From: a virus | DNA length: 64,000 nucleotides | Virus record (IMG/VR): IMGVR_UViG_3300045988_095445 | Reading direction: 5' to 3' (one strand) | Shown here: positions 15,781 through 45,305 of the stretch, one piece after another | Numbering within the stretch: position 1 is the first letter of the stretch | Layout: each line of letters begins with the position of its first letter | Made by a program: the position numbers and the translations under genes | Notes under the pieces: generated by a model | What the model was told of the DNA's origin: nothing | What the model saw: the letters and a program-made list of their open reading frames with translations, nothing else | The model's database searches: none

Positions 15781-18700
15781 GTGGCTAATAATAGAAGATT
15801 AAATTATTAGATTGGGTTTGATGTTGATACTGCTGAACTTTACAGAGCAGTAAACGAGGCAGTTCAATCTTTAAATAAAATCAGTGCCGGTTCTAAAGTT
15901 ACAGCAGAATTGCGACAAGCTTCTTAGTCTGCGCTAGAGTTATCTACTTATATGCATTAGGCATTTAATCAAGGGACTGGAAAGTTAGATTTAGTAGCTT
16001 TTGAAAATAGTTTAAAATCTAGCGGAAGAACTCTTAAAGATTATGCCAACTCGTTAATTTCGATTGGTACCGAGGGGCAAAAGGCTTTTTTAAATGTAGC
16101 AACAGCGATTCAAAAAGCGGAGCTTCCAGCATTGCGCACTGGCAAAATATTTGATTAGTTATGGATTACTATGAAAAATACTATGAGATGGCAGATTACC
16201 TCCACCGCGTTAAATAGTTTTGTGGGAACCATAGAATCAGCTTATGGGTATGCACAAGATCTAAATGAATCATTAACAAATATTCGTATAGTTACTGAAA
16301 ATTCTGCGGAAGACATGGCTAAATTTGCTCAATAGGCAAATGAAGCAGCAAAAGCATTAAGTACAACTACTGTTAAATATAGTGATGCTGCTTTGATTTA
16401 TTATCAATAGGGTCTTACTGAATAGGAAGTTTTAGATAGAACTGAAACTACTATTAAAATGGCTAATGCCGCAGGAATTAGTGCATAGACCGCTTCGGAT
16501 CAGCTGACCGCAGTTTGGAACAACTTCTATGATGGAAGTAAGAGTCTTGAATATTATGCTGATGTAATGGTGCGTTTAGGCGCCGATACAGCGTCTAGCT
16601 CTGATGAAATTTCAGAAGGTATCCAACAATTTGCCTCTGTAGCAGATACAGTTGGATTAAGTTACGAATATGCTGCTTCTGCTCTTGCTACTGTCACTGC
16701 TACGACACGTGAGTCTGCTAATACAGTAGGTACAGCATTTAGAACTTTATTTGCTCGTATCCAAGGCTTAAATCTTGGAGAAACTCTCGATGATGGCACT
16801 ACATTAAATAAATATTCTAAAGCTCTTGAAAAAGTGGGTATTGATATTTTTGATGTTAATGGTGAGATTAAAACTATGGATACCTTACTTGATGAAATGG
16901 GTTCAAAATGGGAGACCTTATCTAATGACTAGTAGATTGCTTTGGCTTAGACCGTAGCCGGAGTTCGCCAATATACTCGTCTTATTGCACTTATGGATAA
17001 TTGGGATTTCTTTTAGGAGAATTTAGCTAGTGCTTATGGAGCAGAGGGATCTCTTTAGGAACAGGCAGATATTTATGCTGAATCTTGGGAAGCTGCTAGA
17101 GATAGAGTAAAAGCATCTGCTGAGGATATTTATGATAGTGTCATAAATCCAGATTTGTATATAAATGCAGATAATGTCTTAACTCCATTTTTATCTGGTA
17201 TTGCAGACGCCATTGATGCAATGGGAGGGTTAAATGGTATTTTAGCTAGTACCGCTTTGTTGATTAATGGGATTTATGGAAATAAGATTGCTGAATCAAT
17301 GCGTTCTATGGTGGCTAATATAAAAGTTCTATCTGGATTAGAGTAGAATAGAGCGAGAAATTTGTAGGCATCAGCGGCTGAGATAGCAACTCAATTAGGC
17401 TTAACAAACTCTATGTCTTAGGCTGAAAAAAATCTTTTTAATATTATGGTTGACTAGGCTAATATATAGGGCCAAATAAATAGTAACTACGACGCGATGG
17501 ATGCTAATGGTCGTAGATTAATTTAGACAGAACAGTTAAAATTAAGTATTTTGCAAGATTAGTTAAAGACATATTCTTAGTAGTAGATTTAGTCTAGGGA
17601 AAATGTATTAAATCTTAGAGATACTATTTATTTTAATATAGGAATAAAAGATGGCTGGCAAGAAGAAGTTAAAGCAGAAATAAATAAATTTAATAGTAGA
17701 AATAAAAGTAATCAAATTTAGTTAAATATAAGAGCTAATAGTAACCTTGATAAAATTTATAATGATGTTACTACTTAGTTAACTAGTTTAATTTAGCAAT
17801 CTACAAAACTTGATACAGTGTATCAAGAATTTAAAAAACTTGAAAGCGCTGGAACTGCGACTAGAGACAGCCTTCGTAATTTATTATCTAGTGTTACGGG
17901 CAAAGAACATAATTATGCTTAGATTGAATGGCTGACTTAGCAATTAGAGGGGTTAAAAAATTAGTCTCAAAATGCAAAATTGCAAATTCGTGAACTTGGG
18001 ACTATTTTATAGACTATGGGAGCCGATCCAAGAGTAGTTACTTCTTATATTAATGAATTAACAAAATTGGAGTCTGTTACTGCAAGAACAACTGAACAAG
18101 AGGCTCGATATTAGGAATTGTTAGCGAAGTTCCCTAGTGTAATTACAAAAGCATTAATACCAACGAGAGATTGGGCTACAATATTGGTTTAGGTTGGAAG
18201 TTCTCTTTCTAGTTTAACTATGATTATGAATGCTTTTTAGAGCATTGGAAGAATTTTTTCTGATGAAGATATGACTTCAACTGAAAGAATTGTAGCTTTG
18301 TTTACTTCTCTTGGTATGTTACTACCCTCTATTATTTCTGTTTATAAAACTTTAAATATGTTAACTACTGCTCATGCTGTTGCAGCAGCGGCGGACGCCG
18401 CGGCAACATCAGTAGAGGCTTTAGCGACAGAATAGCTTGCTATGGCGAAGCAGAAAGCCGCTATGGCTTCCGGCATCTTAACTGCTGCAATTATGGTAGC
18501 AATAATAGCGATTACTGCAATAACAAGTGCTATAAAAGCATAGCATGAAGCAACCTTGGCTGCTGCTTAGGCCTCTATTGATGCGGCAAATGCAAAAAAA
18601 GAAGAAGCACAAGCGAATAGAGAGTTAATTCAATCTACTCAAAATGCCTTATCTACTTATCAAGAAACTGGGGATGGAAAAGAAGAGTTAGATGATTTAA

Positions 18701-21700
18701 CTCGTTAGTTGGCTAAAGCGTATGGTTTAGAAGGCAGTGCATTAGCTAGACTAAGTGGATAGTATGAAGATTATAATAGTGTTTTAAAAGCTGCTCAAGA
18801 AGCTCAAAGAAGAGAACTTTAGGAAACTTTGTAGTCCCAAGAAGAAGCGTTACGTGCGAATGAAACTCTCATTCTTGAAACCGCGAGAGAGGGCGTGGGC
18901 CACGTATATTTTGGTGGAAATTATGAGGGGTCTTTTACTGGTTTTAATGATTTTTGGAATGGCACCGAAGAAGATACTGCATCTAATATTCTTCTCAATA
19001 ATGTGGACGCTTTATATAGTAGTTGGAATGACAATGTAATTGGCGGAAGAAGAAACTTAGCTTTTTCTATAGACCCAAATAATACAGAAGAATTAATTAA
19101 TTTTTATGATCAATTAAATAATGCTATTAATTTGATGAATAATAGCATGACTGTTTCGGAAAGAGGAGCATCTGGACTTTATAATGCTGCTGTTGAGTGG
19201 CGAGATAAAATGGAAGAGGTTGTCACTCAATATAAAGAAACTAAAGAGAGTATAAATGTTATTCGGGTATAGCTTGGAGAGTTTAATAATTAGACTATTA
19301 CCGATGATCAAGTATCAAGTTTAGCGTAGTATAAAATTTGGGTTAACGAAGTTACAGAGGCGCTCACTTCTGCTGGATATGAAGGCGAAGAATTAAACGA
19401 TATAATCAATGATTTAGTATCTACTTCTCTGAATCCTGATATTAGTGGCTTTAAAGATATTTATGACGCAATTTTAGAGGTTAAAGAATTAGTCAATGAT
19501 GAAGAATTAAAAAGTAATCTTGAATCTATTTTTACAGATGAAAATTATGATACTTCTGTATTAAATTTATTAAATTGGGGTGCTTTAACATAGGAGACTT
19601 TTTAGGATGCCTATGACAGTGCTAAAAAATATGCTGATGTTATTTCCGAAGTTAAAAACACAACAGAATCTTTAACTACTGCACAATCTGCCTTAGAAAC
19701 TCTTGGAGATAGAGATTTAGATCGAGAAGAATTAGAATCACTTTCTAAAACTGTTGATTGGGGAAATCAAGAAAAAGGAATTATTGATTTTAATTAGTTC
19801 CTTGCTATGACTTTAGTTGAACAATAGAGTTATTTATAGAGGATTATAAATGAGTCCTATTAGGCTGTCAATAATAGATTAATAGATTAGATTAGTGAAG
19901 CAAAAAAGAGAATAACTGAGCAATAGGATATTTTAAATCAATATAGCGATTCTGAATTAGAACATGCAGAAAAAGTTGTTTATGCTTGGGAACAAGTTCG
20001 AGAAGCGTATAATGATTATCAAGGTAGCTTAAATGGCGGAGAAGAATTTAATCTTGATAATTATACGATTGATTGGGATTTGTTAGGTGAAAATTTTGAT
20101 TGGGAATCTTTTAAAACCGAAACTGCGGATAACGTAGCTAGTGCATTTGAGTATGGGACAAAAGAAGCTCAAGATAAAATTGATACTGTAACTTTAGCAG
20201 AGTAGCTAATTAGTAGTTTATAGGATGATATAGATTCTAGCACAGCTTAGTTACAAATAAATGCAGAATTAAATTTTTAGAATCAATTAGATTAGATTGA
20301 AAATTCCGTTGACGGAATTGTAAGTGTATTCGATGCTATTTCTGATGGAGTAAGCTAGACTACCAATGAAGCTGGAGAACAAGTTTGGAGTTTTAGTAGA
20401 GAAGCAGCTAAGGCTATTGAATCTATCTATCCAGGTTTTATAGCTAACGCGGAATTATTAAGGGATGGTACATTTGCTTTAACAGATGAGATGTATCAAG
20501 CATTTTATAATAGTTCTTAGGGGCAATTAGCTGTTGATGCTGATACCAAATCTAATATGCTTCAAAATCTTATTTCTCTTTTAGAGGCTAAACGAGGAGA
20601 GGCTGAAGCTTCGCTTAAGATCGCTGATCAGCTAGCTTCTGGAGAATTAACTATAAACGAATTATCAGATGAGCAGAAGAGAACTTTATTAGCGGGATAT
20701 GTAAATGCTTAGAATCTTGCTAATGGAGAAATGTTAGATGATTAGGTCAATAGTTTAACCGCACAAGATACAAATTAGTAGACTTTATGGACTAATGTTA
20801 GCGAGTATTCTGCTTAGGGCGCGCAGAACATGAGTACTAATGTATAGTTAAATACTCAAAATGTTCTTGCTAATCTTGAAAAAATTAGAGATGCGGCATA
20901 TGCTACTGGAATTCAAGTATCTCAAATAGGAACTGATAATGTTACTAAGCAAGATTTTGATACTTCTGCTGTTTCTTTTGATAGTTCGGCTGCAACAACA
21001 ATAGATACGAGTAACGCTGATGATTTCTTAAATTCTTTAACTGCAAATTTAGATGTAGAACCTGTAACCGCAGACGATTTAAATATTTATGGTGATGCTA
21101 GTGAGGCACTTGAAGCTAAGCAATCTTAGGCAGTTGGAGAAGCGCTAAGGGCCATTTATTAGGGGAGTATTGATGGGTATAATGAGGCTATAGCAGCAGC
21201 AAAAATAGCCTAGAGCAAATTATTAGATTCTATTGATGGAGCTATAGAAGGGGTAAAGGGAAGTTCAAGTGGCGGAGATAATGAAGGCACTAAGTATGAC
21301 GAAGAAGATGAAAAGACTCTAAAGGATATTGAAGATAGATACCATGAAATAACTCGCGAAATTGAGAATTAGAACGATTTATTAGATGATATTGGAAATA
21401 ATATAGATAGAGCCTATGGCGCCAATAAACTTCAAGCATACTAGAGAGAACTTCAAGAATTAGAGAAATAGCAAGCTAATTATAACAAACTACTTAATGA
21501 AGCTGAAACTTATCTTACAAAAGACTAGGCAGATCTTCAAGGGTTGTTTAATAATTCTCTTATTTTTGATGAAAATGGAGAAATTGAAGGTTATCAAAGT
21601 GTTCTTCAATCTATAATAGATGATTATAATAATAATTTCTTGGCAGATTATAATGCTTTTTTAGTTACCTTTAGTAATCTTACTAAAGATGAATAGGAAG

Positions 21701-24507
21701 CTAGATAGGCAGAATATGATAGTTGGCAGTTACAAAAGGAAGCTGCTGATGAATTATTCCAAGCTCGTTAGGATGCTCTCGCCCAATATGAAGAAACTCT
21801 TGACAAAATTCAAGAAGTAAAGGATGAATAGGAAGAACTAGAGAGAAGCATCGCAGACAATAGATTGAGCTAGATTGAATATAAACTTGAAGTTGTAATA
21901 GAAATAAAAGATGCTAAAGATGCTGTTCGTGAATTAACTAAAAAGATTGCAGAATCATTTGGCGATGAATTAACTCATGGTATTGAAGTCGCTCGTATTG
22001 ATGAAAATAGTGTGAACGAAAATATAAAAATAATCAAGGATTATGAAGAAACACTTAAGAGTTATCAAGAAGAATTGGCTAACGCAACGGATGCAACCAA
22101 TATTGATGGAATTATAAGTAAAATATCTGATTTATAGGATAAAATAATTTCTACCGCAGAAGCTCTACTTGATTGGGTAGAAGGTCTTGAAGAAATGTTG
22201 CCAAATGCATTAGACGCTGCATCTGAAAGATTCGCTGAATTTACTGATCAACTTGACCATAATGAATCAGTTCTTGGACTTATAAAAGAATTGTATACAC
22301 TTTAGGGGGTTACATATAAAACCGAAGAAGGATTTGAATAGCTCCAAAAAGTAAGCGAAGAAACAATGAAAGCTCAAATAGCAAATGCGCAGTTAAATAA
22401 ATAGTGGTACGACGGTATTAAATAGGAACTTTTAGAAGCTTAGAGTGCGTTAGATGCGTTAGACGGCGATGAAACAGATCCGGCATATGATGGTTTAAAA
22501 GCTAATCGAGATGCATTATTAGAAGAATATAATGAAGCTCAATAGGCGATGTTAAGTTCCGCGCAAGCCGCTATGGAAACTGCACAAGAGATGTATACTT
22601 AGGCTATTGAAAGAGCCGTATACGAATTTGGATAGGCGGTTTCTGGCGGAGTTGGCTTAGATTTGCTACAAGACAAGTTCGATCATTATATTGAGCAAGA
22701 AGATAGATATTTAGATAAAGTAAATGAAGCATATGAAGTATCTTCTTGGTATAATAAACTTCAATAGGATATTGATAAAGCCACTAATTCTAAAATGAAA
22801 GATTAGTTGAAATAGTTACAAGAAGAAATTGATATTCGTAGAGAGAATAATACTTTATCTGAATATGATCTAGAAATTCTTGAAGCTAAGTATAATGTTC
22901 TTTAGGCTCAGATGGCTCTTGAAGATGCTCAAAATGCAAAGAATCAACTTAGATTAGTAAGAGATAGTCAAGGTAATTGGAATTATCAATATACCGCAGA
23001 TGCGAGTTAGATAGCAGATGCGGAATAGAATTTACTTGATGCAGAGAATGAATGGTATAATATAGCTAAACAATAGGTTGAAGATGTTACCGGAGAAATT
23101 ATTTCTACTTGGCAGGAATGTCAGGATAAAATAAAAGAGATTTATTCTGATATGACCTTGACTGATGAGGAAAGATCTGCCCGCGCGCAAGAAATCTATT
23201 CTTATTATACGCAGAAGGTTAAGGATCTAGAGAACGAAAAACAGATCGCTATTTAGGATATGACCGAAGCCGGTAATAAAGCCTTAATTGATATGGCTAT
23301 TGTTGCGGGAGACAAGGTAAGTGATCTAACTGGAATTACAAGTCAAGAAATTCAGGATATTATAGCCAACTCTGGCTCTAGTATTATTGATTTGTTATTA
23401 TCCGATAATGAATAGATTCAAGATATAGTTGGAAGTAATACAAAACTTATTGATTTATTTGATAATGTTTTTGCAAAAGATCTTGCTAATATGACTTCTA
23501 ATGCTGGAAATTTTGAAGATTTTCTATCTAAAGCCATGGACGAAGCAAGTGAAGCAATGGAAGATTATCAAACTACTGTCTCTGGAGTGGCTGATTAGAC
23601 TGGAACAAGCCTTGATGATTTAGAAGGTTATCTTGATGATGTTACAACTTCTACAGAGTTATGTTCTGATGCGGGATCAGAAGCTGTCACTTAGATGTTA
23701 GAATAGATAAGCACTATTCAAGATTTAAGTCAAGAATATTTAGACATGGCTGAATCAGTTAGAGAATATATAAGGGCTCTTGAGGAGGCTGCTAGAGCAG
23801 CTGGAAATACAATAGAAAGCGCTGGAGGAATAGATAAAGATGATTTACCTCCCGCTAATTCAGATCAATCTTCTGATAATAACTCTAGCAATAGTAATAG
23901 CGGATCTTCCAGTGGAGGGGCTGGAAGTGGCAATGGAATCCCAGAAGTAGGAGACGAAGTCATTTATACTGGTGGAACTTATTATCATGATTCTTATGGC
24001 ACAGATCCAGCAGGTAGACGTGGACCCGGTAAGAAAGTTAAAATAACTAATATAGCTAAAGGCAGACCATATCCGATTCATGTATAGTCTAATAATTCTG
24101 CATATGGCTGGTTAAAAGAAAGTCAAATAAGCGGATTTGATACAGGAGGTTATACTGGAGAATTTGATAATGCTAAATTAGCTTTCTTACACGAAAAAGA
24201 GTTAGTTTTAAATCAAGAAGATACGAAAAATATTCTCGCGGCGGTTTCTGCTATAAGAGCTTTTGAACCTAGTTTTATAGCTTCTATAGAGAAAGCGCTT
24301 GATGGAAATGCACTATCTATTTCTAATCTTATGGCATCAAGATTAGGATCTAATACTTAGATTACTCCAGCAGATAACACAGTTGAACCGTATATAAATA
24401 TTGAGCGAGTTGAGTTCCCAAATGCGACATCTTCTGATGAAATTCAAGATGCTATTCGTAGTTTAGCTGATGATGCTACTCAATGGGCAAATAGAAGAAA
24501 GGGATAA
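15781..24507 (+). CDS. tail tape measure protein (about 2909 aa)
   Basis: GTG start after AAAGGAGGAAAAGGATT. ORF-track fragments 16567.., 17155.., 18895.. and 23746.. are all in frame 1. Triplet reading is continuous to TAA at 24505-24507 with more than 100 in-frame TAGs and no TAA or TGA. The TMP core (EYYADVMVRLGADTASSSDEISEGIQQF..., around 16.5 kb), a hydrophobic TM segment around 18.2-18.5 kb, and long Q/E-rich coiled coils are present. Confidence 0.6.
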
Positions 24508-37740: not shown

Positions 37741-37747
37741 AAAAAAT

Positions 37748-37790
37748 GGGGAGAACCTTAATTTCAAGGTTCTCCCCATTTTTTATTTCT
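37748..37790. terminator. bidirectional terminator between the convergent + and - gene blocks
   Basis: GGGGAGAACCTTAATTTCAAGGTTCTCCCC with A-tract 5' and T-tract 3'. Confidence 0.7.
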
Positions 37791-38241
37791 CGCAAGGAGG
37801 TTTACTATATAAATGATAATGCGGTTTTTCTTCTCCAAACCATTTCCATCTTAGGTAGTCGTCTAATACTATTGCCAAAAGGCTTAAAAAGAACCAGGCG
37901 ATAGAGAATGGTAAACAAATCTACCCCATAAAATTCAATGGAACATGAGAATAATCCCAAATACCTAAGCCTAGTTTTACATTTAATACTAGACCAAAGA
38001 TTAATTCTAAAGCAGTTATGATTAAAGAGCCTTTTACTCCTTGAGTAAGAATAGATTCTTCCCAAAGAACGTTCTCATTCATTAGTCCTATTAATAAAAA
38101 GCATAAGCCGCCCAATAAGAACATAGACCAATGACAAGTTCCAAAGCTGATAAAAGTTTTATAGAGGAACTCTATACCGTAATATAGAGTTCCTCCAACT
38201 GCAAATAGAATTATATTTTTACTCACTGTCGGTATCTTCAT
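37783..38241 (-). CDS. polytopic membrane protein (holin-like?)
   Basis: ORF 37921..38241 continues through a TAG at 37921-37923 to TAA at 37783-37785, giving 152 aa with 4 predicted hydrophobic helices. Confidence 0.4.
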
Positions 38242-38881
38242 AGTTTAATTCAATAGCTTTTAATTTATCTATTGAATCAGCTTCGAATATCTAAGTTTTA
38301 TATTCTTGCATTAAATGATATTTGGGATATACCGCATTTGAAATAGCTAAACTTAGAGCGGATAATTGCTCTAAACTCCATGGCACACATTCTTCGTGTC
38401 GAGCGTGCCACTCAAGCGTAGGATTTTCTACTTCAGCCGCGAGAGCGACTTGATATTGATTGAGATTTAAGCTAATCTCAGACTGGTCCTCCTACGTAAT
38501 TCCATATTCTTTTCCATCAACCCAAGTTAGTGGGTGGGTAGCAAGATACTCTGCGAATAGTTTCTTGTTTTCCTCTTGTTTGTCATACTTTGCCTAATCT
38601 AAATCAGAAGTGAATGTTCCATCTTCTTGATTATATATTGAATAATTAGGAGTAACATCTGATGGAATTGTTTCTATCTCTAATACTTTTACAGCATTAG
38701 ATTGATTTAATACATCGGCTTTAATTAGAGTATAATGTGTATCTCCATTTGAGCCGATAACCCCAGTTCCCTCTTCTTCCTCGCAGGCAACGACAATACC
38801 ATTTGAGGATTGCAGTTTAATGTAACGTGCTTCTGAAAGAATATCAACTACTACATTCTCTCTATTTAATAGAATATACAT
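38219..38881 (-). CDS. hypothetical protein (about 220 aa)
   Basis: ORF 38594..38881 is extended through 3 in-frame TAGs to TAA at 38219-38221. Its start overlaps the RT stop (TAATG). Confidence 0.4.
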
Positions 38882-40098
38882 TACTTTATTTCAACTCCTT
38901 TAAATAATGAACGAAAATAATTGTCCATATCTTGAATTATACAAAAACAAGTTCCTTTAGAAATATGTGCCCTCCAACCTTGATAGGATTTCTAAATTTC
39001 ATCTGTTGAAATTTTACCCTCTAGCCATAGCGCTTGCATTTTCTTCAACTTTCTGCGCTAATGAGCCACTTTCTTTTTAAAAGGAATTTGTATTATATGA
39101 TTAGTGTCTGTGAGATAAAAGTTCCACTTTAAGTATTTTAATGGAGCGTGACGTTTGCCGTCCGCGTGAATAGGAGAGATTCTAGTAATAGTAGTCTTTT
39201 TCTTATTCATCTTTAATCCTTGCTTATTTAAGCGAACTTCTATTCTCTTTTCACATTCGGCTAAGTATTGACTGTCATTGTGGAATAAATATAAATCATC
39301 CATATAACGACCATAATACTTTATATGTAACTCTTCTTTGATGAAGTGGTCAATTTCGTTCAATGCTAGCAATGCGAATAATTGTGATGTTTGACTTCCT
39401 AATCCAAGACTTTTATTATCATATTCATAGTATTTGCGGCCAGGCTTAAAATTAGTGGTACTAATTCTTGTGTATTTGTGCCGTTTACTAATATAATAAT
39501 CTTTTCCTGGTATGGGAGAGGAATCTTTTGTTAGCTTAAAAGAAAATGTATCTATTAAATAACAGCATAGCTGATAAATTCTTTTATCTTTTATCAAACG
39601 TTTAGCCGCTTTCTTTAAAGATTTATGGTCAATAGAATCAAAATATTTTTGAATATCAATTCTTAACCCATAAAAATCTTTTCCTAATCCATATTCTCTA
39701 TGAGCTTGTTGAAGGTGTTTCTTTACTCTTTTTAAAGCAAAGTCTATTCCTTTTCCTCTTAAAGTCGCACAATTATCGTAGATAAATCTAGGAGTTAATT
39801 CTGGTAATAAAACTTGTTCACATAACGCATTTTGTACCAGTCTGTCGTTGATATGACACGCTCTTATATCTCTTGGTTTGCCTCGTTCGATTATCGAAAA
39901 ACAACTAAACACAAGCTATTCGTATTCACACGCTCGCAGATCAGCTTCTGTTTTTAAAATTGTTTCTATCCTATTCTCTTCAAAATTAATTGTACTATCT
40001 TTCCATCGAACGTTTCGGCATACCTTATAAGACGCATCATACATAGCGTCAAAACTACAAAAACGCTCGAAAGCAGTATCTTGGTTTATTTCAGACAT
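38881..40098 (-). CDS. DGR reverse transcriptase
   Basis: ORFs 39916..40098, 39058..39912 and a further downstream segment are in frame through TAGs at 39916-18 and 39058-60, giving about 405 aa. RT motifs present are RGKPRDIRACHINDRLVQNAL, YGLRIDIQKYFDSIDH, the YMDD box (GRYMDDLYLF) and the DGR-type LGLGSQTSQ motif. Confidence 0.8.
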
Positions 40099-40407
40099 AC
40101 TTTCTCCTTATCATGTAGCTATAGTGGTAGCTACTCGAGCTCCACGTCTACAGTCTTACTTTATCCACTTTTTCAGTGAAATGGTTAAGTTCTCCTTAGA
40201 TGAAAAGGCAGATCTACCTATAGTATATTATTCGATAGTTGTAGAGCAAAGCTCTTTAACGGTCTCTCAATCTCTTCCCCACATAGTGGGTGCAATCCAG
40301 AGTAAACCTTAATTAGATGGATAATAATATACTCCGGGGTACTATTTAGGCGTTGCTCGTTTGCGCTGCTCCGCAGTTTAACTCGCAACATGATAGCTCC
40401 ATCTAAT

Positions 40408-40504
40408 CCGGCGCCAGACCGTTGCTGTTGTTGTAGTTGTTGTTGTTCGCAGATCCATCGTTGTTGACATTGCAAACGTTGTTCGAGTTGTTGTAGTTAC
40501 GGGA
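40408..40504 (-). repeat. DGR template repeat (TR), 97 bp
   Basis: It is 97 bp, near-identical to 41131..41227. All 11 mismatches are A in this copy (coding/minus strand) versus N in the other copy. Confidence 0.75.
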
Positions 40505-40537
40505 CCGAAAGATACAGAACTTAACCGCAGAAAAATA

Positions 40538-41032
40538 TTATCGACCTCTCCTATGGGTTTTAGGAGCCGAATATCTATGCTCGACTATAAGTTTATCTCT
40601 ATTTTTTCTATCTTGGATTGATTCTTTTACTTTCTTAGTCAATCTAGCTAGATGTTCAAAAGATCTTCTTTTCTTTTTGCTGTTTTGAGCATACTAATAA
40701 ATACATAGGTCGATTTGTCGAAATATACTATCACAATATTCAATCGCTTTATTGTGATATTCATTTCTTTTTGTAAGGGTTTCTTTATCTTTTAAGTTTA
40801 TCTTACACGCCTCATAGCAGCAAGCGTGTATACCCTTTCCGCGTTTAATTATATCGTACCCGAACGCTTGAAGAGGTTGACCCTCTCCAAGCAGTCCAGG
40901 TTTGCAGATTTGTTTTCCATCCTTATCAAATTCTCTAGGACGAGTTAAGACTAAAATGTAGCCAACCAATTCACGGGCTTTATAAAGACAGTCTTGTTTT
41001 GATAGGTGTCTATCCTTTACTTTTACAGACAT
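40538..41032 (-). CDS. DGR accessory variability determinant (Avd-like), with a basic C-terminal extension if the TAG is read through
   Basis: ORF 40694..41032 (112 aa, small basic helical protein) sits between VR and TR. It continues past a TAG to TAA near 40538. Confidence 0.55.
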
Positions 41033-41113
41033 TTAAAATTTCCCTCACTTGAATATATAATTTTTTTATTGGACAATTTAACCTTAACTGTCCCGAATTG
41101 TTATTTTGCTGTA

Positions 41114-42880
41114 TTATCCAATGACGAAAGCCGGCGCCAGACCGCGGCTGTTGTTGTAGTAGTAGCCGTACGCAGATCCATCGTTGTCGACATAGCAAAC
41201 GATGTTCGAGTTGTTGTAGTGACGGGAGCGTTCCCAATACAAATTCGTGTTACTCGTCAACGAACCATTGGCGTTCATATAGTATTTAACTCTAGTAGAG
41301 TTGCTTGTGTAGTAACTATATGGAGCATTATATCCCTATGTACACTCAGCCTTAGAAGTTGTACTGTTAGTAGTAGAAATAGAAGAATAAGAATCTAATC
41401 CCATTTCTCTTTCAGAAGGTAGCCATACTGTTTCATTATTATAAGTTACAGAACCATTTCTAGAACCATTAGTGCTAGGACAAGTACCTTTACTTACTGT
41501 TTTAATAGATGCTTTAGCACTACAATAATTATAGAAATTTTGGCATTGGGCTCTAGCATCTGATCCAATCCAAATCGCATCGTCACCAAACTAAAGAGCA
41601 TTGGGTAAAGTACCCGCAGTCTGGAAAGTTAAAGTTCCAGTTCCATCCTAATCAGCACCAATACAAATCATTGTAGCAGCATTAGCGCCAAGTACCGCAC
41701 TAGAAAGACTTACGAGTTTCTTTTTACCTACGCATTTCTTTCTTTCACTGGAAGAAGCCTTAGCTGCCCAGGTCTTTAATTCAGCCCACCACTTAGCATC
41801 ACCAGTAGCAGTTTCAGAACCCCACTCCCAATAGCTTGCTGTTACTGTAACAGTCTTGTTACCTGGAGCAGTATGGTTAGTTCCGGCCGCAACTTTAATA
41901 GTAATCGTAGTAGAAGAAATAGCCGTACTGCCATCACCTTTAATAGTAAGAATATTACCACTTAAAGAGAGGGTAAGACCGGTAACACTAGTTGGAGTAT
42001 AGCTAATAGCTCCATCTCCCGCGCGAGTAATAGTAACTTTAACGCCAGCACTATAATTATCTCCATCAAGAGCAACAGAAGTTGGATTTACAGTTAAACT
42101 ACCCGCGGCTTTATTAATAATCCAGTTTACATCAAGGTTATCGGTTGTCTTATCAGCCCATCTATAATTGCTCTTTAGAGTAAATGTAGCTGTATAAGTT
42201 CCTGCATTAGTAGCGGAAGTAGTTCCGCCAATCGTCATATAAGTGGTATTGAAATTATTCCAATAAGAAGTTCCACTTACTGATTGACTATTACCTGTAT
42301 AGGTAAGATTACTTTTCCAGGTTGGTTTAGCGACAGATTTACGCTCAACAGTTACCGTAAATTTCGCAGATTGAGTTACTTCATTCTCTGTATAAGAAAC
42401 AGTAATTTGCTAGCTGCCAACTGTAGTTAAGGATGTTGGTGAGCACGTATAACCTGTAACAGCCGCGCTTTTATTATCAGAGTAACTCGCTGTAACTACC
42501 ATTCCTGTTGTTTGAAGGGTGTCACCATATTCATAGGTCATCTTAGTTGGGTTAGTAGTAACCTGAATACTAAGAAGTTTATGAATAACAGTTACCTTCT
42601 AGGTAGTTTGACAAGTTTCACCGAGTTCTGAATAAGTAATAGTTACTTCAGTAACCTCATCTGTTAAAGGATTTGGAGTAACTTGATATCCAGTTACTTC
42701 TGCTGTTGTTACAATAACACCATACATGCCGTAAGATGCGGTAACTACCATTCCAGCAGGATTAAATGTGTCACCAGCAAGATAGCTTGTTTTATTAGGG
42801 GGAGTGGTTACTTCAATTTTTACAAGAGAAAGAGAGCCTCCACCTTTTCCACCCTACTCAGCTAAAATACATTTAGGCAA
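41114..42880 (-). CDS. DGR target protein with Big_2-type Ig-like repeats and a C-terminal C-type-lectin/DUF1566-like variable domain (likely receptor-binding fibre)
   Basis: TTG start after GAAGGAGGTAAACAA. It is continuous over 589 codons through 5 TAGs, including ORF 41648..42238. It has LAGDTFNPAGMVVTASY-type Ig repeats. Motif ETVWLPSEREMG resembles the DUF1566 WxLPT.EL motif. VR lies at the extreme C-terminus. Confidence 0.7.
41131..41227 (-). repeat. DGR variable repeat (VR) at the 3' end of the target gene
   Basis: It is 97 bp, matching the TR except at TR-adenine positions. It has a GC-rich 3' IMH-like end (GGTCTGGCGCCGG on the coding strand). It encodes ...RSRHYNNSNIVCYVDNDGSAYGYYYNNSRGLAPAFVIG*. 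Confidence 0.75.
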
Positions 42881-43056
42881 ATTGTTTACCTCCTTCTATC
42901 TAGCTATTGCTATAAACAAATCTAAATTACTAGATAGAAGGTCGAGGATGGAAGCGATCTTCGCTCCAGTCTTTTAGAAAGTCATTAACAATTTCCGAGA
43001 AAAAGTACACTTTTTAACAGGAAAAATACTTCTTCTGTCTAGATAACAAAAAATTG

Positions 43057-43083
43057 GGAAAAGGGTAAGAAACCCTTTTCCCA
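43057..43083. terminator. hairpin in the divergent intergenic region
   Basis: GGGAAAAGGGtaagaaaCCCTTTTCCC is flanked by a T-run and an A-run. Confidence 0.45.
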
Positions 43084-43205
43084 AAAGTGAGTATCTTACT
43101 CTTTTCAAATATATATGAAAGAAAGAGTAGATAAATTATATATAGTTGACCAAGTTCAGTAAAGTGTACTTTTTTAAAGGTTTTAGATGAAAGGAGAAAA
43201 TATCT

Positions 43206-43844
43206 ATGGAATGTATTTTAACTGGATAGGTTAAAAACCAAAATGCTATTACCGTGCCAGGAGGCGGTAGCGCGGAAATGGGAGAAACATTAGGATCAGG
43301 GCCTTATACTATTGAATTTGATGAAGAAGATAATGAAAATCTAGCTGCATTATCAATAGAATATGATAATAAAACTTCAAACATGACTGCCACTAATGTT
43401 CAATCTGCTATTGATGAACTTTTTACCGATGTCAGTGAGGGCAAAACCCTAATAGCGACCGCAGTCACTGACAAAGGAGTAGAAACTGCGGCGACCGATA
43501 GTTTTTCAACTATGGCAGATAAGATAGGATAGATTACAACAGAAACCCCTATAGAAACGGTGGATATTATATTTGAATCATTGAGTGGTATAAGTGGATG
43601 TACTGTAATAATAGAATATGAAAATGCGCCAATGTCAGTATGGGTAGTGTAGAAAAATAATTATAAAGTGATAAAAAATAGTATTATAACTATAAATGCC
43701 GGTTCTTCTTCAGGACTTAAAATTACTCCTCAGTCTGCATATGAAAGTTTGGGAGCTATATTAATAAATAATAATTATCAAGTTATAGCATATAAAATTA
43801 TTGGTCCCGCTACAATTACTTCTACTGGAGGTAATATTAATTAA
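43206..43844 (+). CDS. tail-fibre-like protein
   Basis: SD AAAGGAGAAAATATCT then ATG at 43206. It is 212 aa through 3 TAGs. Motif NVQSAIDELF is common in phage fibre proteins. Confidence 0.45.
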
Positions 43845-43866
43845 ATTTAGGAGGTAGTATTATACT

Positions 43867-44265
43867 ATGATAAAAGTAAATGGGAAAAAGGTTGCTGGAA
43901 TAGGGTAGCCTGGATTAAACGGTAAATCTGCTTATGAAACAGCTAAAGAAGGAGGGTTTACTGGAACTGAAAAGGAGTTCAATACTATATTAGCAAATTC
44001 TGCACTTAAACCTATTATTAAATTGATAACTCTATATTCATCAGCTTGGTCTAATAATACTCAAACAGTAAATATAATTGGAGTATTGAGCGATGAGGGC
44101 AAATAGATAATTTGTCCAACTCCAACAATAAAAGATATAGATATATATAATAATTCAGGCATTTAGTGTATAAATCAACAAGAAAATAGTTTAACTTTTA
44201 AAGCCCAAAAAATTCCAGAAAATGATATATAGATATATATAATTTTGTAGGAGGTGCGAACATGA
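43867..44265 (+). CDS. hypothetical protein with a short collagen-like GxxGxxGxx segment
   Basis: SD TTAGGAGG then ATG at 43867. It is 132 aa with 5 TAGs and ends at TGA at 44263-65, overlapping the next start. Confidence 0.4.
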
Positions 44266-44510
44266 TTATTAACCAAACTTTTCAGACGGAAAAGTATTCA
44301 ATAATAGATAAAACAAGCCTTCAATATGGCTATCCAGTAAGAGCAACCCCTGGAGAAATTGTTTACAGCAGTCCTATGAGTGCAGGAATATCAGATAATG
44401 TATATTTAATAAAAGATGGAAGCTCTATTGATGATGTTTATTCAGATGGTAGATATAAATTTATAATGCCAGAAGGCGATGTTTTGATTGCTAGAGATTA
44501 TCCTTGGTAA
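44262..44510 (+). CDS. hypothetical protein, TAG-free
   Basis: Intact ORF from the track with SD GTAGGAGGTG. Confidence 0.45.
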   Translation: MIINQTFQTEKYSIIDKTSLQYGYPVRATPGEIVYSSPMSAGISDNVYLIKDGSSIDDVYSDGRYKFIMPEGDVLIARDYPW

Positions 44511-44544
44511 TCTTATATATATTATATAATAAAATTTTATATAA

Positions 44545-45252
<708 letters not shown>

Positions 45253-45305
45253 AGTTAAACTATCTTCCTATTGTTTTATATATAATATAAAGGAGGAATA
45301 TAAAT

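Follow-up and report, generated by a model that had tools for sequence, protein, structure and literature searches.

The 64,000-nucleotide stretch of viral DNA held as IMG/VR record IMGVR_UViG_3300045988_095445, which we call the window, carries a diversity-generating retroelement (DGR) on its minus strand, in a block of co-oriented genes that is surrounded by plus-strand tail genes. Read along the minus strand, the element consists of a target gene (41114..42880) that has the variable repeat (VR, 41131..41227) inside it, close to its 3' end, followed by an accessory gene (40538..41032), the non-coding template repeat (TR, 40408..40504) between the accessory and RT genes, a spacer of 309 nucleotides (40099..40407) and the gene for a reverse transcriptase (RT, 38881..40098). 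An earlier sequence-only reading had proposed a complete DGR in the order target, VR, avd, TR, spacer and RT, with a spacer of roughly 300 nucleotides, and its coordinates were correct to the base. The open reading frames (ORFs) have these limits only if TAG is taken as a sense codon, a recoding of which that reading said nothing. We conclude that the locus is very probably a complete DGR that was active in the recent past.

TR and VR differ at template adenines

A repeat search of the window returned a 103-nucleotide direct repeat (40405-40507 and 41128-41230), which has further mismatches outside a 97-nucleotide core formed by the TR and the VR. Within this core the two copies differ at 11 positions, and all 11 are adenines of the TR on the minus strand, which is the coding strand, just as had been claimed beforehand. 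With 35 adenines among the 97 nucleotides of the TR, the hypergeometric probability of such an outcome is P = 4.2e-6. The codon changes listed in the sequence-only reading (AAC to CAC, ATC, GAC, TAC, GGC and CGC) were all found, together with an additional change of AAT to TAT. In the VR frame, 34 of the 35 TR adenines lie at codon position 1 or 2, the remaining one being the third base of GGA, and the codons that bear them are 14 AAC, one AAT, two TAC, one GAT and one AGC. Adenine mutagenesis of these 19 variable codons could give ~1.1e20 variants, and the AAY design of the codons makes the creation of a stop codon impossible.

The VR encodes near-C-terminal residues of the target and ends 14 nucleotides short of the TAA stop codon. 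As the sequence-only reading had also stated, both repeats share a GC-rich 3' end, which resembles an initiation of mutagenic homing (IMH) element: the 13 nucleotides GGTCTGGCGCCGG occupy 41131..41143 on the minus strand in the VR and recur unchanged at the 3' end of the TR (40408-40420). Homology between the repeats stops at CCGG, beyond which the VR continues with C and the TR with A. A search of the window for a second VR found only the known pair.

The RT resembles DGR reverse transcriptases

The RT (405 residues) contains a KPR fingertip motif, the sequence LGLGSQTSQ and a YMDD box, the last two of which had been named as DGR-type motifs before any search was made. DGR RTs have GxxxSQ as motif 4 where group II introns have QGxxxSP, and LGLGSQTSQ conforms to the former. 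The protein matches Pfam RVT_1 (1.3e-16) and phrog_1423 (3e-83). Its best match in the PDB is bRT from the Bordetella DGR ribonucleoprotein (8ub7_A, E 9e-15), with group II intron RTs at 1e-7. The alignment to 8ub7_A spans the N-terminal extension, the KPR fingertip and the YMDD box, and places IGSLTSQLFAN opposite LGLGSQTSQLFA. Both the motifs and this alignment indicate an RT of the DGR clade. Among phages in GenBank, the closest RTs are 29-35% identical and come from phage nd12 (35%), Roseburia phage Shimadzu and Faecalibacterium phages. The RT is 77 residues longer than bRT and has an insertion between the aligned blocks (residues ~178-228); its C-terminal region (~325-405) can be aligned to the thumb/X part of an RT from a group II intron.

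VRs vary among closely related genomes

Using the RT protein as query, we retrieved 35 related loci from IMG/VR, with RT identities of 65-99% on contigs of up to 148 kb. Approximately 27 of these loci have full context, and in them a TR/VR pair lies at the same place and differs by 14-25 mismatches, nearly all at TR adenines. The closest group is made up of the window and L001, L002, L004, L031 and L005, six genomes with RTs at least 91% identical. Their TRs are identical save for one or two non-A sites in the GC-rich end (GGTCTGG, GGGCTGG or GGACTGG; CTGGCG or CTCGCG), and these non-A changes, including those within the IMH-like element, are mirrored by the same base in the VR of the same genome. 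The VRs of this group vary at 32 of the 36 TR-adenine sites, and the DNA downstream of the VR is ~99% identical. A second group comprises 12 genomes, and in it variation affected 36 of 38 adenine sites as against 3 of 65 non-A sites. The sequence-only reading had suggested looking for VR heterogeneity in read pile-ups; we compared near-identical genomes instead, and found the variation confined to TR-adenine positions. This pattern, seen in assemblies from natural populations, is what repeated, directional, adenine-mutagenic transfer from TR to VR would leave as its signature. All the checks that had been named in advance (the TR/VR adenines, the RT motifs, VR heterogeneity and a fold model of the target) came out in favour of a DGR, the heterogeneity to the extent that assembled genomes can reveal it.

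Several relatives carry lesions in the cassette. The RT of L004 has a CGA to TGA change at codon 55 (L004:6001-7215), which inactivates it, and those of L031 and L032 have a +1 insertion in an A-run at nucleotide 483 (L031:6001-7216; L032:1077-2292), a frameshift that could be an assembly error. In L016 (4840-4975) the VR is shortened and has some non-adenine differences from its own TR, and in L035 (5568-5703) a 15-nucleotide deletion lies within the TR and the VR is of full length; these two are either decay variants or template-slippage variants. The window copy is intact, under genetic code 15, in its RT, accessory gene, TR, spacer pairings and target.

Covariation in the spacer RNA

The spacer would form the structured 3' part of the DGR RNA. 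For 19 loci we made an alignment that runs from the 3' end of the accessory gene to the RT start; folded with RNAalifold, it gave 75 predicted base pairs, 26 of them with compensatory changes. The fraction of alignment cells that could pair was 96.9%, compared to 36-52% when the partners were slid against each other and 92.2% in shuffled alignments. The 26 compensatory pairs similarly compare with 4-7 for slid partners and 11 +/- 1.7 for shuffles, and none of 500 shuffles equalled the observed covariation.

Two of the predicted duplexes connect the spacer with the two flanks of the TR. On the 5' side of the TR, GTTAAGTTCT (40516-40525), which lies past the stop codon of the accessory gene, is predicted to pair with AGAACTTAAC (40184-40193) through 10 pairs, 4 of them compensatory, with 98% of cells paired. 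On the 3' side, TTAGATGGAG (40397-40406) is predicted to pair with TTTCATCTAA (40196-40205), a candidate template:primer duplex, and the spacer partners of the two duplexes are two bases apart. A covarying stem-loop after the TR (40352-40389) is a candidate Avd-binding stem-loop. The rest of the predicted minus-strand fold consists of a helix (40332-40337 with 40297-40302) and hairpins at 40277-40290, 40206-40219, 40164-40180 and 40114-40152. In the Bordetella RT-Avd-RNA complex (bioRxiv 10.1101/2023.10.23.563531), a duplex between TR and spacer is the template:primer, a duplex between upstream and downstream segments stops cDNA synthesis ('cPRT Stop'), and an Avd-binding stem-loop is located just downstream of the TR. 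As judged by covariation, the topology of the spacer described here matches that architecture. If the analogy holds, A40196 or A40197 would serve as the priming adenosine, and templating would begin at ~40407 or 40408.

The candidate template:primer duplex has a rival. The segment TCCATCTAATT (40311-40321, minus strand) is fully complementary to 40398-40408 and can pair with it. Pairing in this alternative helix reaches 99.5% across 18 sequences and includes two compensatory pairs; of the 19 loci, L027 lacks it. The existence of two partners, 40311-40321 and 40196-40205, hints at alternative conformers of the RNA. A search of the whole window with Rfam at gathering thresholds found no family for the spacer and no intron or retron RNA.

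TAG is read as glutamine

None of the RT, accessory and target genes is intact under translation table 11, and each interrupting codon is TAG. There are three in-frame TAG codons in the RT (codons 61, 347 and 369), one in the accessory gene (codon 113) and six in the target. The same holds across the window, where reading through TAG raises the length covered by ORFs of 150 codons or more from 19 kb, the value for the standard stop codons, to 63 kb. Nearly all long genes have TAG inside them, and no gene requires it as a terminator. Its share of glutamine-type codons is 49% in the structural block, as against 23% in that of the DGR and 19% in that of replication. Because TAG columns in an RT alignment of 36 relatives match mainly CAA or CAG, including within the conserved GSQTSQ motif, we take TAG to encode glutamine (code 15). 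The most heavily recoded gene of the window (15781-24507, plus strand; 2908 codons) has 100 in-frame TAG codons; its product is presumably a tape-measure or other giant tail protein.

Standard decoding would cut the RT to 284 residues, which lack the N-terminal extension and the C-terminal region, would strand the VR in a 54-codon ORF and would remove helix 4 from the accessory protein at TAG codon 113. With the RT, the accessory protein and the VR-bearing target all truncated in this way, the DGR therefore depends on recoding. Gene calling under code 11 hides such elements, since it returns an RT of 284 residues and a VR in an ORF of 54 residues.

An accessory protein in the position of Avd

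The accessory gene lies between VR and TR in 34 loci and encodes a protein of 164 residues with an isoelectric point of 9.8 and a net charge of +19. The sequence-only reading had called this gene avd. The position fits that name and is conserved in the 34 loci, whereas the sequence does not identify the protein as an Avd. Sequence and profile searches of Pfam, NCBIfam, PHROGs and the PDB returned no match and no membership of Avd, PF05635 or TIGR02436, and a tblastn search with the protein found nothing. An exhaustive profile search of 1.84 billion representative sequences gave only 30 matches, whose remotest members have no known domain and no link to Avd. In a set of 5.8 billion proteins the family comprises 91 clusters, and none of these has a Pfam domain.

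We obtained an AlphaFold model from an alignment headed by a homologue 99% identical to the window protein (P0001) and containing 31 further homologues. The model has a mean predicted local distance difference test (pLDDT) score of 90 and a predicted template modelling (pTM) score of 0.81, and shows four long helices, the first two of which are separated by a beta-hairpin, and a basic tail at the C-terminus. As a monomer model it predicts a four-helix-bundle fold that resembles Avd. A distant member of the family (P0169, E 8e-7) is encoded on an unrelated 32-kb standard-code phage contig, L045, between a DUF6273 gene and an RVT_1 gene. This contig has a DGR of its own (L045:2678-5708) in the order DUF6273 target, Avd-like gene, TR and RT, with 16 of 19 TR/VR mismatches at adenines, and its repeats share with the window cassette a CCGG-A/C-TT boundary. 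The other genes of the contig include Prophage_tail, BppU_N, XkdX, an r1t holin and an amidase. From its position and model, we conclude that the accessory protein is an Avd-like factor that is invisible to sequence tools and probably equivalent to Avd in function, and by analogy it might assemble into a pentameric, Avd-like barrel.

The target protein and its surroundings

The target gene starts with a TTG codon at 42880, preceded by AAGGAGG, and encodes 588 residues. Its N-terminus, (M)PKCILAEQ, matches those of homologues (MSLKCILQGQ and others). The sequence-only reading had described Big_2 Ig-like repeats and a C-terminal C-type-lectin/DUF1566-like fold that carries the VR. The C-type-lectin assignment agrees with a confident structural model, whereas the two families proved to be different ones: Pfam identifies the Ig-like part as Big_3 and the C-terminal domain (residues 434-587) as DUF6273, and the homologues carry PF19789. 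The model was of the corresponding domain of the closest homologue, which is 75% identical to that of the target (pLDDT 95, pTM 0.91). It has a C-type-lectin fold, in which the VR would map to C-terminal surface strands and loops. An alignment of the target family shows a conserved scaffold, YWERSR..VC.V...G.A......LAPAFVIG, and hypervariable positions where the TR has adenines. The genes beside the target match tail-fibre PHROGs, in accordance with the earlier placement of the element in a tail module. These neighbours and an N-terminal motif shared with a nearby gene make the target a candidate tail-fibre or receptor-binding protein, with receptor binding suggested by analogy.

That nearby gene is divergent and fibre-like (43206-43844, N-terminus MECILTGQ), and its common motif with the target, M-x-(K)-C-I-L-x-G/E-Q, gives rise to a 28-nucleotide inverted repeat (42846-42873 and 43210-43237). 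The motif recurs in many database homologues and may be a common attachment module of alternative fibres. In L001 and L002, unrelated sequence stands in place of 43543-44513, the stretch that holds the C-terminal half of this gene together with the small ORFs after it, and the flanks are 97% identical; a fibre module beside the DGR appears to have been exchanged by recombination. A small serine recombinase is encoded at 44581-45252 (plus strand; Resolvase domain, 1e-30) and lies near the cassette in 28 loci; it is flanked by a 30-nucleotide, 87% inverted repeat (44169-44198 and 45251-45280) and might act as an invertase, as a resolvase or in integration.

Upstream of the target is a minus-strand leader (43054..43163), in which a promoter-like site, TTTACT-17-TATAAT (43163-43135), is followed by a terminator-like hairpin of 13 bp with a T-run (43084-43054), ahead of the target start codon. 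The leader is ~80% conserved, in the same orientation, in 27 loci, and its layout of promoter, terminator and operon resembles that of an antitermination-controlled late promoter. A perfect 14-nucleotide inverted repeat (43000-43013 and 43161-43174) brackets the promoter-like site and the hairpin, and the recombinase gene is nearby. We considered an invertible switch at this place and found no support for it, as the inner 147 nucleotides have the same orientation in 27 of 27 loci.

At the other end, the RT stop codon overlaps the start of a co-oriented gene (38219..38881, minus strand; ATGTAA overlap) that encodes 220 residues with a weak match to DUF4376 and lies downstream of the RT in 35 of 35 loci. 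The last gene of the minus-strand block (37783..38241) encodes a membrane protein of 152 residues (PF06541, phrog_20274) and is kept in 33 loci. A strong terminator-like hairpin with a 20-bp stem and a T-run (37741..37784, minus strand) closes the block. The arrangement of target, accessory gene, TR, RT, DUF4376-like gene and small membrane protein is kept in all relatives.

The host phage and its relation to known DGRs

By its terminase large subunit (TerL) the phage is related to large phages of Bacillota, namely Enterococcus phages VRE9_4, H1 and EF1 (50% identity), Geobacillus phage E3 (49%), the TAG-recoded gut phage phAss-1 (44%) and SPbeta-like phages. Because the accessory-protein family occurs on contigs of 147,780 and 148,971 bp that are binned with metagenome-assembled genomes of Eubacterium and Oscillospiraceae, the phage is probably a tailed phage of ~148 kb with a host among the gut Clostridia. 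A nucleotide search with the cassette against GenBank phages gave only one match, of 97 nucleotides at 76% identity.

Tens of thousands of DGRs are known, with an enrichment in gut phages, and the element in the window is a genuine further example of this known system, not a new kind of system. It resembles the prototype of phage BPP-1 (mtd-avd-TR-brt) in the order of target, VR, accessory gene, TR, spacer and RT, in the adenine-specific differences between TR and VR and in the GC-rich 3' end of both repeats. Further likenesses are the VR at the C-terminal end of a protein with a C-type-lectin fold (receptor-binding in BPP-1), a GxxxSQ RT, a basic four-helix accessory protein, and a spacer predicted to form two adjacent duplexes with the TR flanks and a stem-loop downstream of the TR. 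The two elements differ in several respects. RT identity is low, and the window RT has 405 residues compared to 328; it carries extra sequence between motifs 3 and 4 and extends further at the C-terminus. The accessory protein here has 164 residues, is unrecognisable by sequence and has the hairpin insert and basic tail. The spacer is 309 nucleotides long here and 140 in BPP-1, and the upstream pairing segment follows the stop codon of the accessory gene, whereas in BPP-1 it lies inside the gene. Finally, the variable domain of the target is DUF6273, not Mtd, and all the genes of the window element need TAG to be read as glutamine.

Other systems share particular features with it. For Faecalibacterium prophages and for phages nd4 and nd12, DUF6273 has been described as a C-type-lectin-like domain targeted by DGRs (PMC11792537, PMC10743442). 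Like the window element, these have the variable region in DUF6273, Ig-like domains in the target and Clostridia hosts, and nd12, for which a DGR cassette was described, has the nearest GenBank RT (35% identity). In contrast, the genomes of nd4, nd12 and the Faecalibacterium prophages are 32-55 kb and not ~148 kb and TAG-recoded, and RT identities are 29-35%; the accessory genes of nd4 and nd12 were called as Avd by myDGR, and recoding is not mentioned for these phages. The DGRs that zeta crAss-like phages carry likewise lie in recoded gut phages, with in-frame TAG codons in the RT that hamper automatic detection, a GxxxSQ motif and a tail-fibre target with a C-type-lectin fold. The zeta crAss-like phages belong to another virus order and host phylum, to judge from the TerL of the window and the binning with Clostridia, and most of their DGRs have no detected Avd gene, whereas here the gene in the Avd position is conserved. 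phAss-1 and the proposed Phassvirus group (PMC10607447) have genomes of ~133-136 kb, recode TAG to glutamine mainly in virion genes and have a probable Clostridia host; the paper makes no mention of an RT or a DGR. The window phage shares with phAss-1 the recoding of TAG to glutamine and, at 44% TerL identity, a distant relationship. phAss-1 has suppressor tRNAs, unlike the 64-kb window. DUF6273 targets and DGRs in recoded phages were already known; what is new here is incremental, and consists of a DGR in a TAG-recoded lineage of Clostridia phages, a cryptic Avd-like family and evidence from covariation for the structure of the RNA.

Discussion

The locus would work in the following way. The minus-strand operon would be transcribed, and the RNA of TR and spacer would fold so that two adjacent segments of the spacer form duplexes with the 5' and 3' flanks of the TR, beside a stem-loop next to the TR. 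The RT and the basic, four-helix-bundle accessory protein, in the role of Avd, would bind this folded RNA. Priming in cis, at the TR's 3' end, would start cDNA synthesis; the TR would be copied with misincorporation opposite adenines, and the cDNA would take the place of the VR in the 3' end of the target gene. Priming in cis by a spacer adenosine and the mechanism of homing are carried over from BPP-1, and may apply here by analogy.

Four points weigh against a complete and recently active DGR in this phage. ARAGORN scans of the 64-kb window, out of a genome of ~148 kb, and of 14 related loci, each of 13 kb, found no tRNA genes and hence no suppressor tRNA(CUA). In BPP-1, efficient homing requires a DNA hairpin downstream of the VR, and a conserved hairpin 3' of the VR was not confirmed here: the window has a weak one, with a z-score of -0.8, that is not kept in relatives. 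The nonsense and frameshift mutations in the RTs of some close relatives mean that activity is not universal in the lineage. The case for activity is also one made by comparing assembled genomes.

These lesions would fit a cassette that was once active in the lineage and is a fossil in this genome, silent now and with inherited VR differences, and the VR and TR deletions in L016 and L035 point the same way; moreover, a single assembled sequence cannot report activity. However, all parts in the window are intact under code 15, the complete lack of non-adenine mismatches in the 97-nucleotide core argues against long drift, and VRs differ between genomes that are ~99% identical elsewhere, so that we judge a fossil to be very unlikely. 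A more radical version, that of a dead element whose genes have decayed into pseudogenes interrupted by TAG, takes its support from the fragmentation of all three ORFs under table 11 and is scarcely credible. Such a standard-code reading is contradicted by the read-through of TAG across the window, where no gene depends on TAG for termination and one gene alone has a hundred of them, and by the alignment of TAG columns with CAA or CAG; related gut phages that recode TAG to glutamine are also known from the literature.

There are two further alternatives, which concern the identity of the proteins. The RT gives weak, sub-threshold matches to NCBIfam models of group II intron and Drt RTs, as it might if it were the RT of another class of retroelement, such as a group II intron, a retron or a defence RT, with the repeats having arisen by an unrelated duplication. 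Yet all the NCBIfam models for group II intron, retron and defence RTs score far under threshold (74 bits against a cut-off of 300), the best match in the structural database is a DGR RT and the GxxxSQ motif is present, the adenine-only mismatches are specific to DGRs and recur in dozens of genomes, and Rfam gave no intron or retron RNA family; we see practically no chance that this explanation is right. The ORF between VR and TR could instead encode some other small basic protein that is not equivalent to Avd, with the RT working alone or with a different partner. It has no similarity to any Avd or to any member of PF05635 or TIGR02436 in single-sequence or profile searches, the four-helix bundle is a very common fold, and the beta-hairpin insert and basic tail are not noted for Avd. 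Given the conserved position and the predicted fold, we consider a protein unrelated in function to Avd unlikely, if less so than a fossil cassette.

A complete, recently active DGR can be combined with the recoding and the RNA structure into a joint reading, in which the element is gated by recoding and by an RNA switch and the accessory protein is a cryptic Avd family. We regard this combination as doubtful, a possibility with the odds well against it. Under standard decoding the RT would lose its N-terminal extension (TAG 61) and thumb (TAG 347), the target its VR-bearing tip (TAG 515) and the accessory protein helix 4 (TAG 113), and if the joint reading were true, mutagenic retrohoming would take place only once the cell decodes TAG as glutamine, tying diversification to the code-switched phase of infection. 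The mutually exclusive partners of the TR flank could then switch the RNA between priming-competent and resting conformers. Gating at two levels would be of a sort undescribed for other DGRs.

The concept of the DGR itself is unchanged by these results. They provide a comparative, experiment-free demonstration, at the level of genome comparison, that an uncultured lineage of gut Clostridia phages with a recoded stop codon has an active DGR, and covariation in this distant taxon lends independent support to the RNA architecture seen in the cryo-EM structure of the Bordetella RT-Avd-RNA complex. The family in the Avd position is linked to DGRs in at least two unrelated types of phage, a point relevant to statements that Avd is missing from some DGRs. 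If it is indeed a cryptic Avd family, it could explain why many DGRs have been annotated as "Avd-less", especially those of gut Clostridia and recoded phages.

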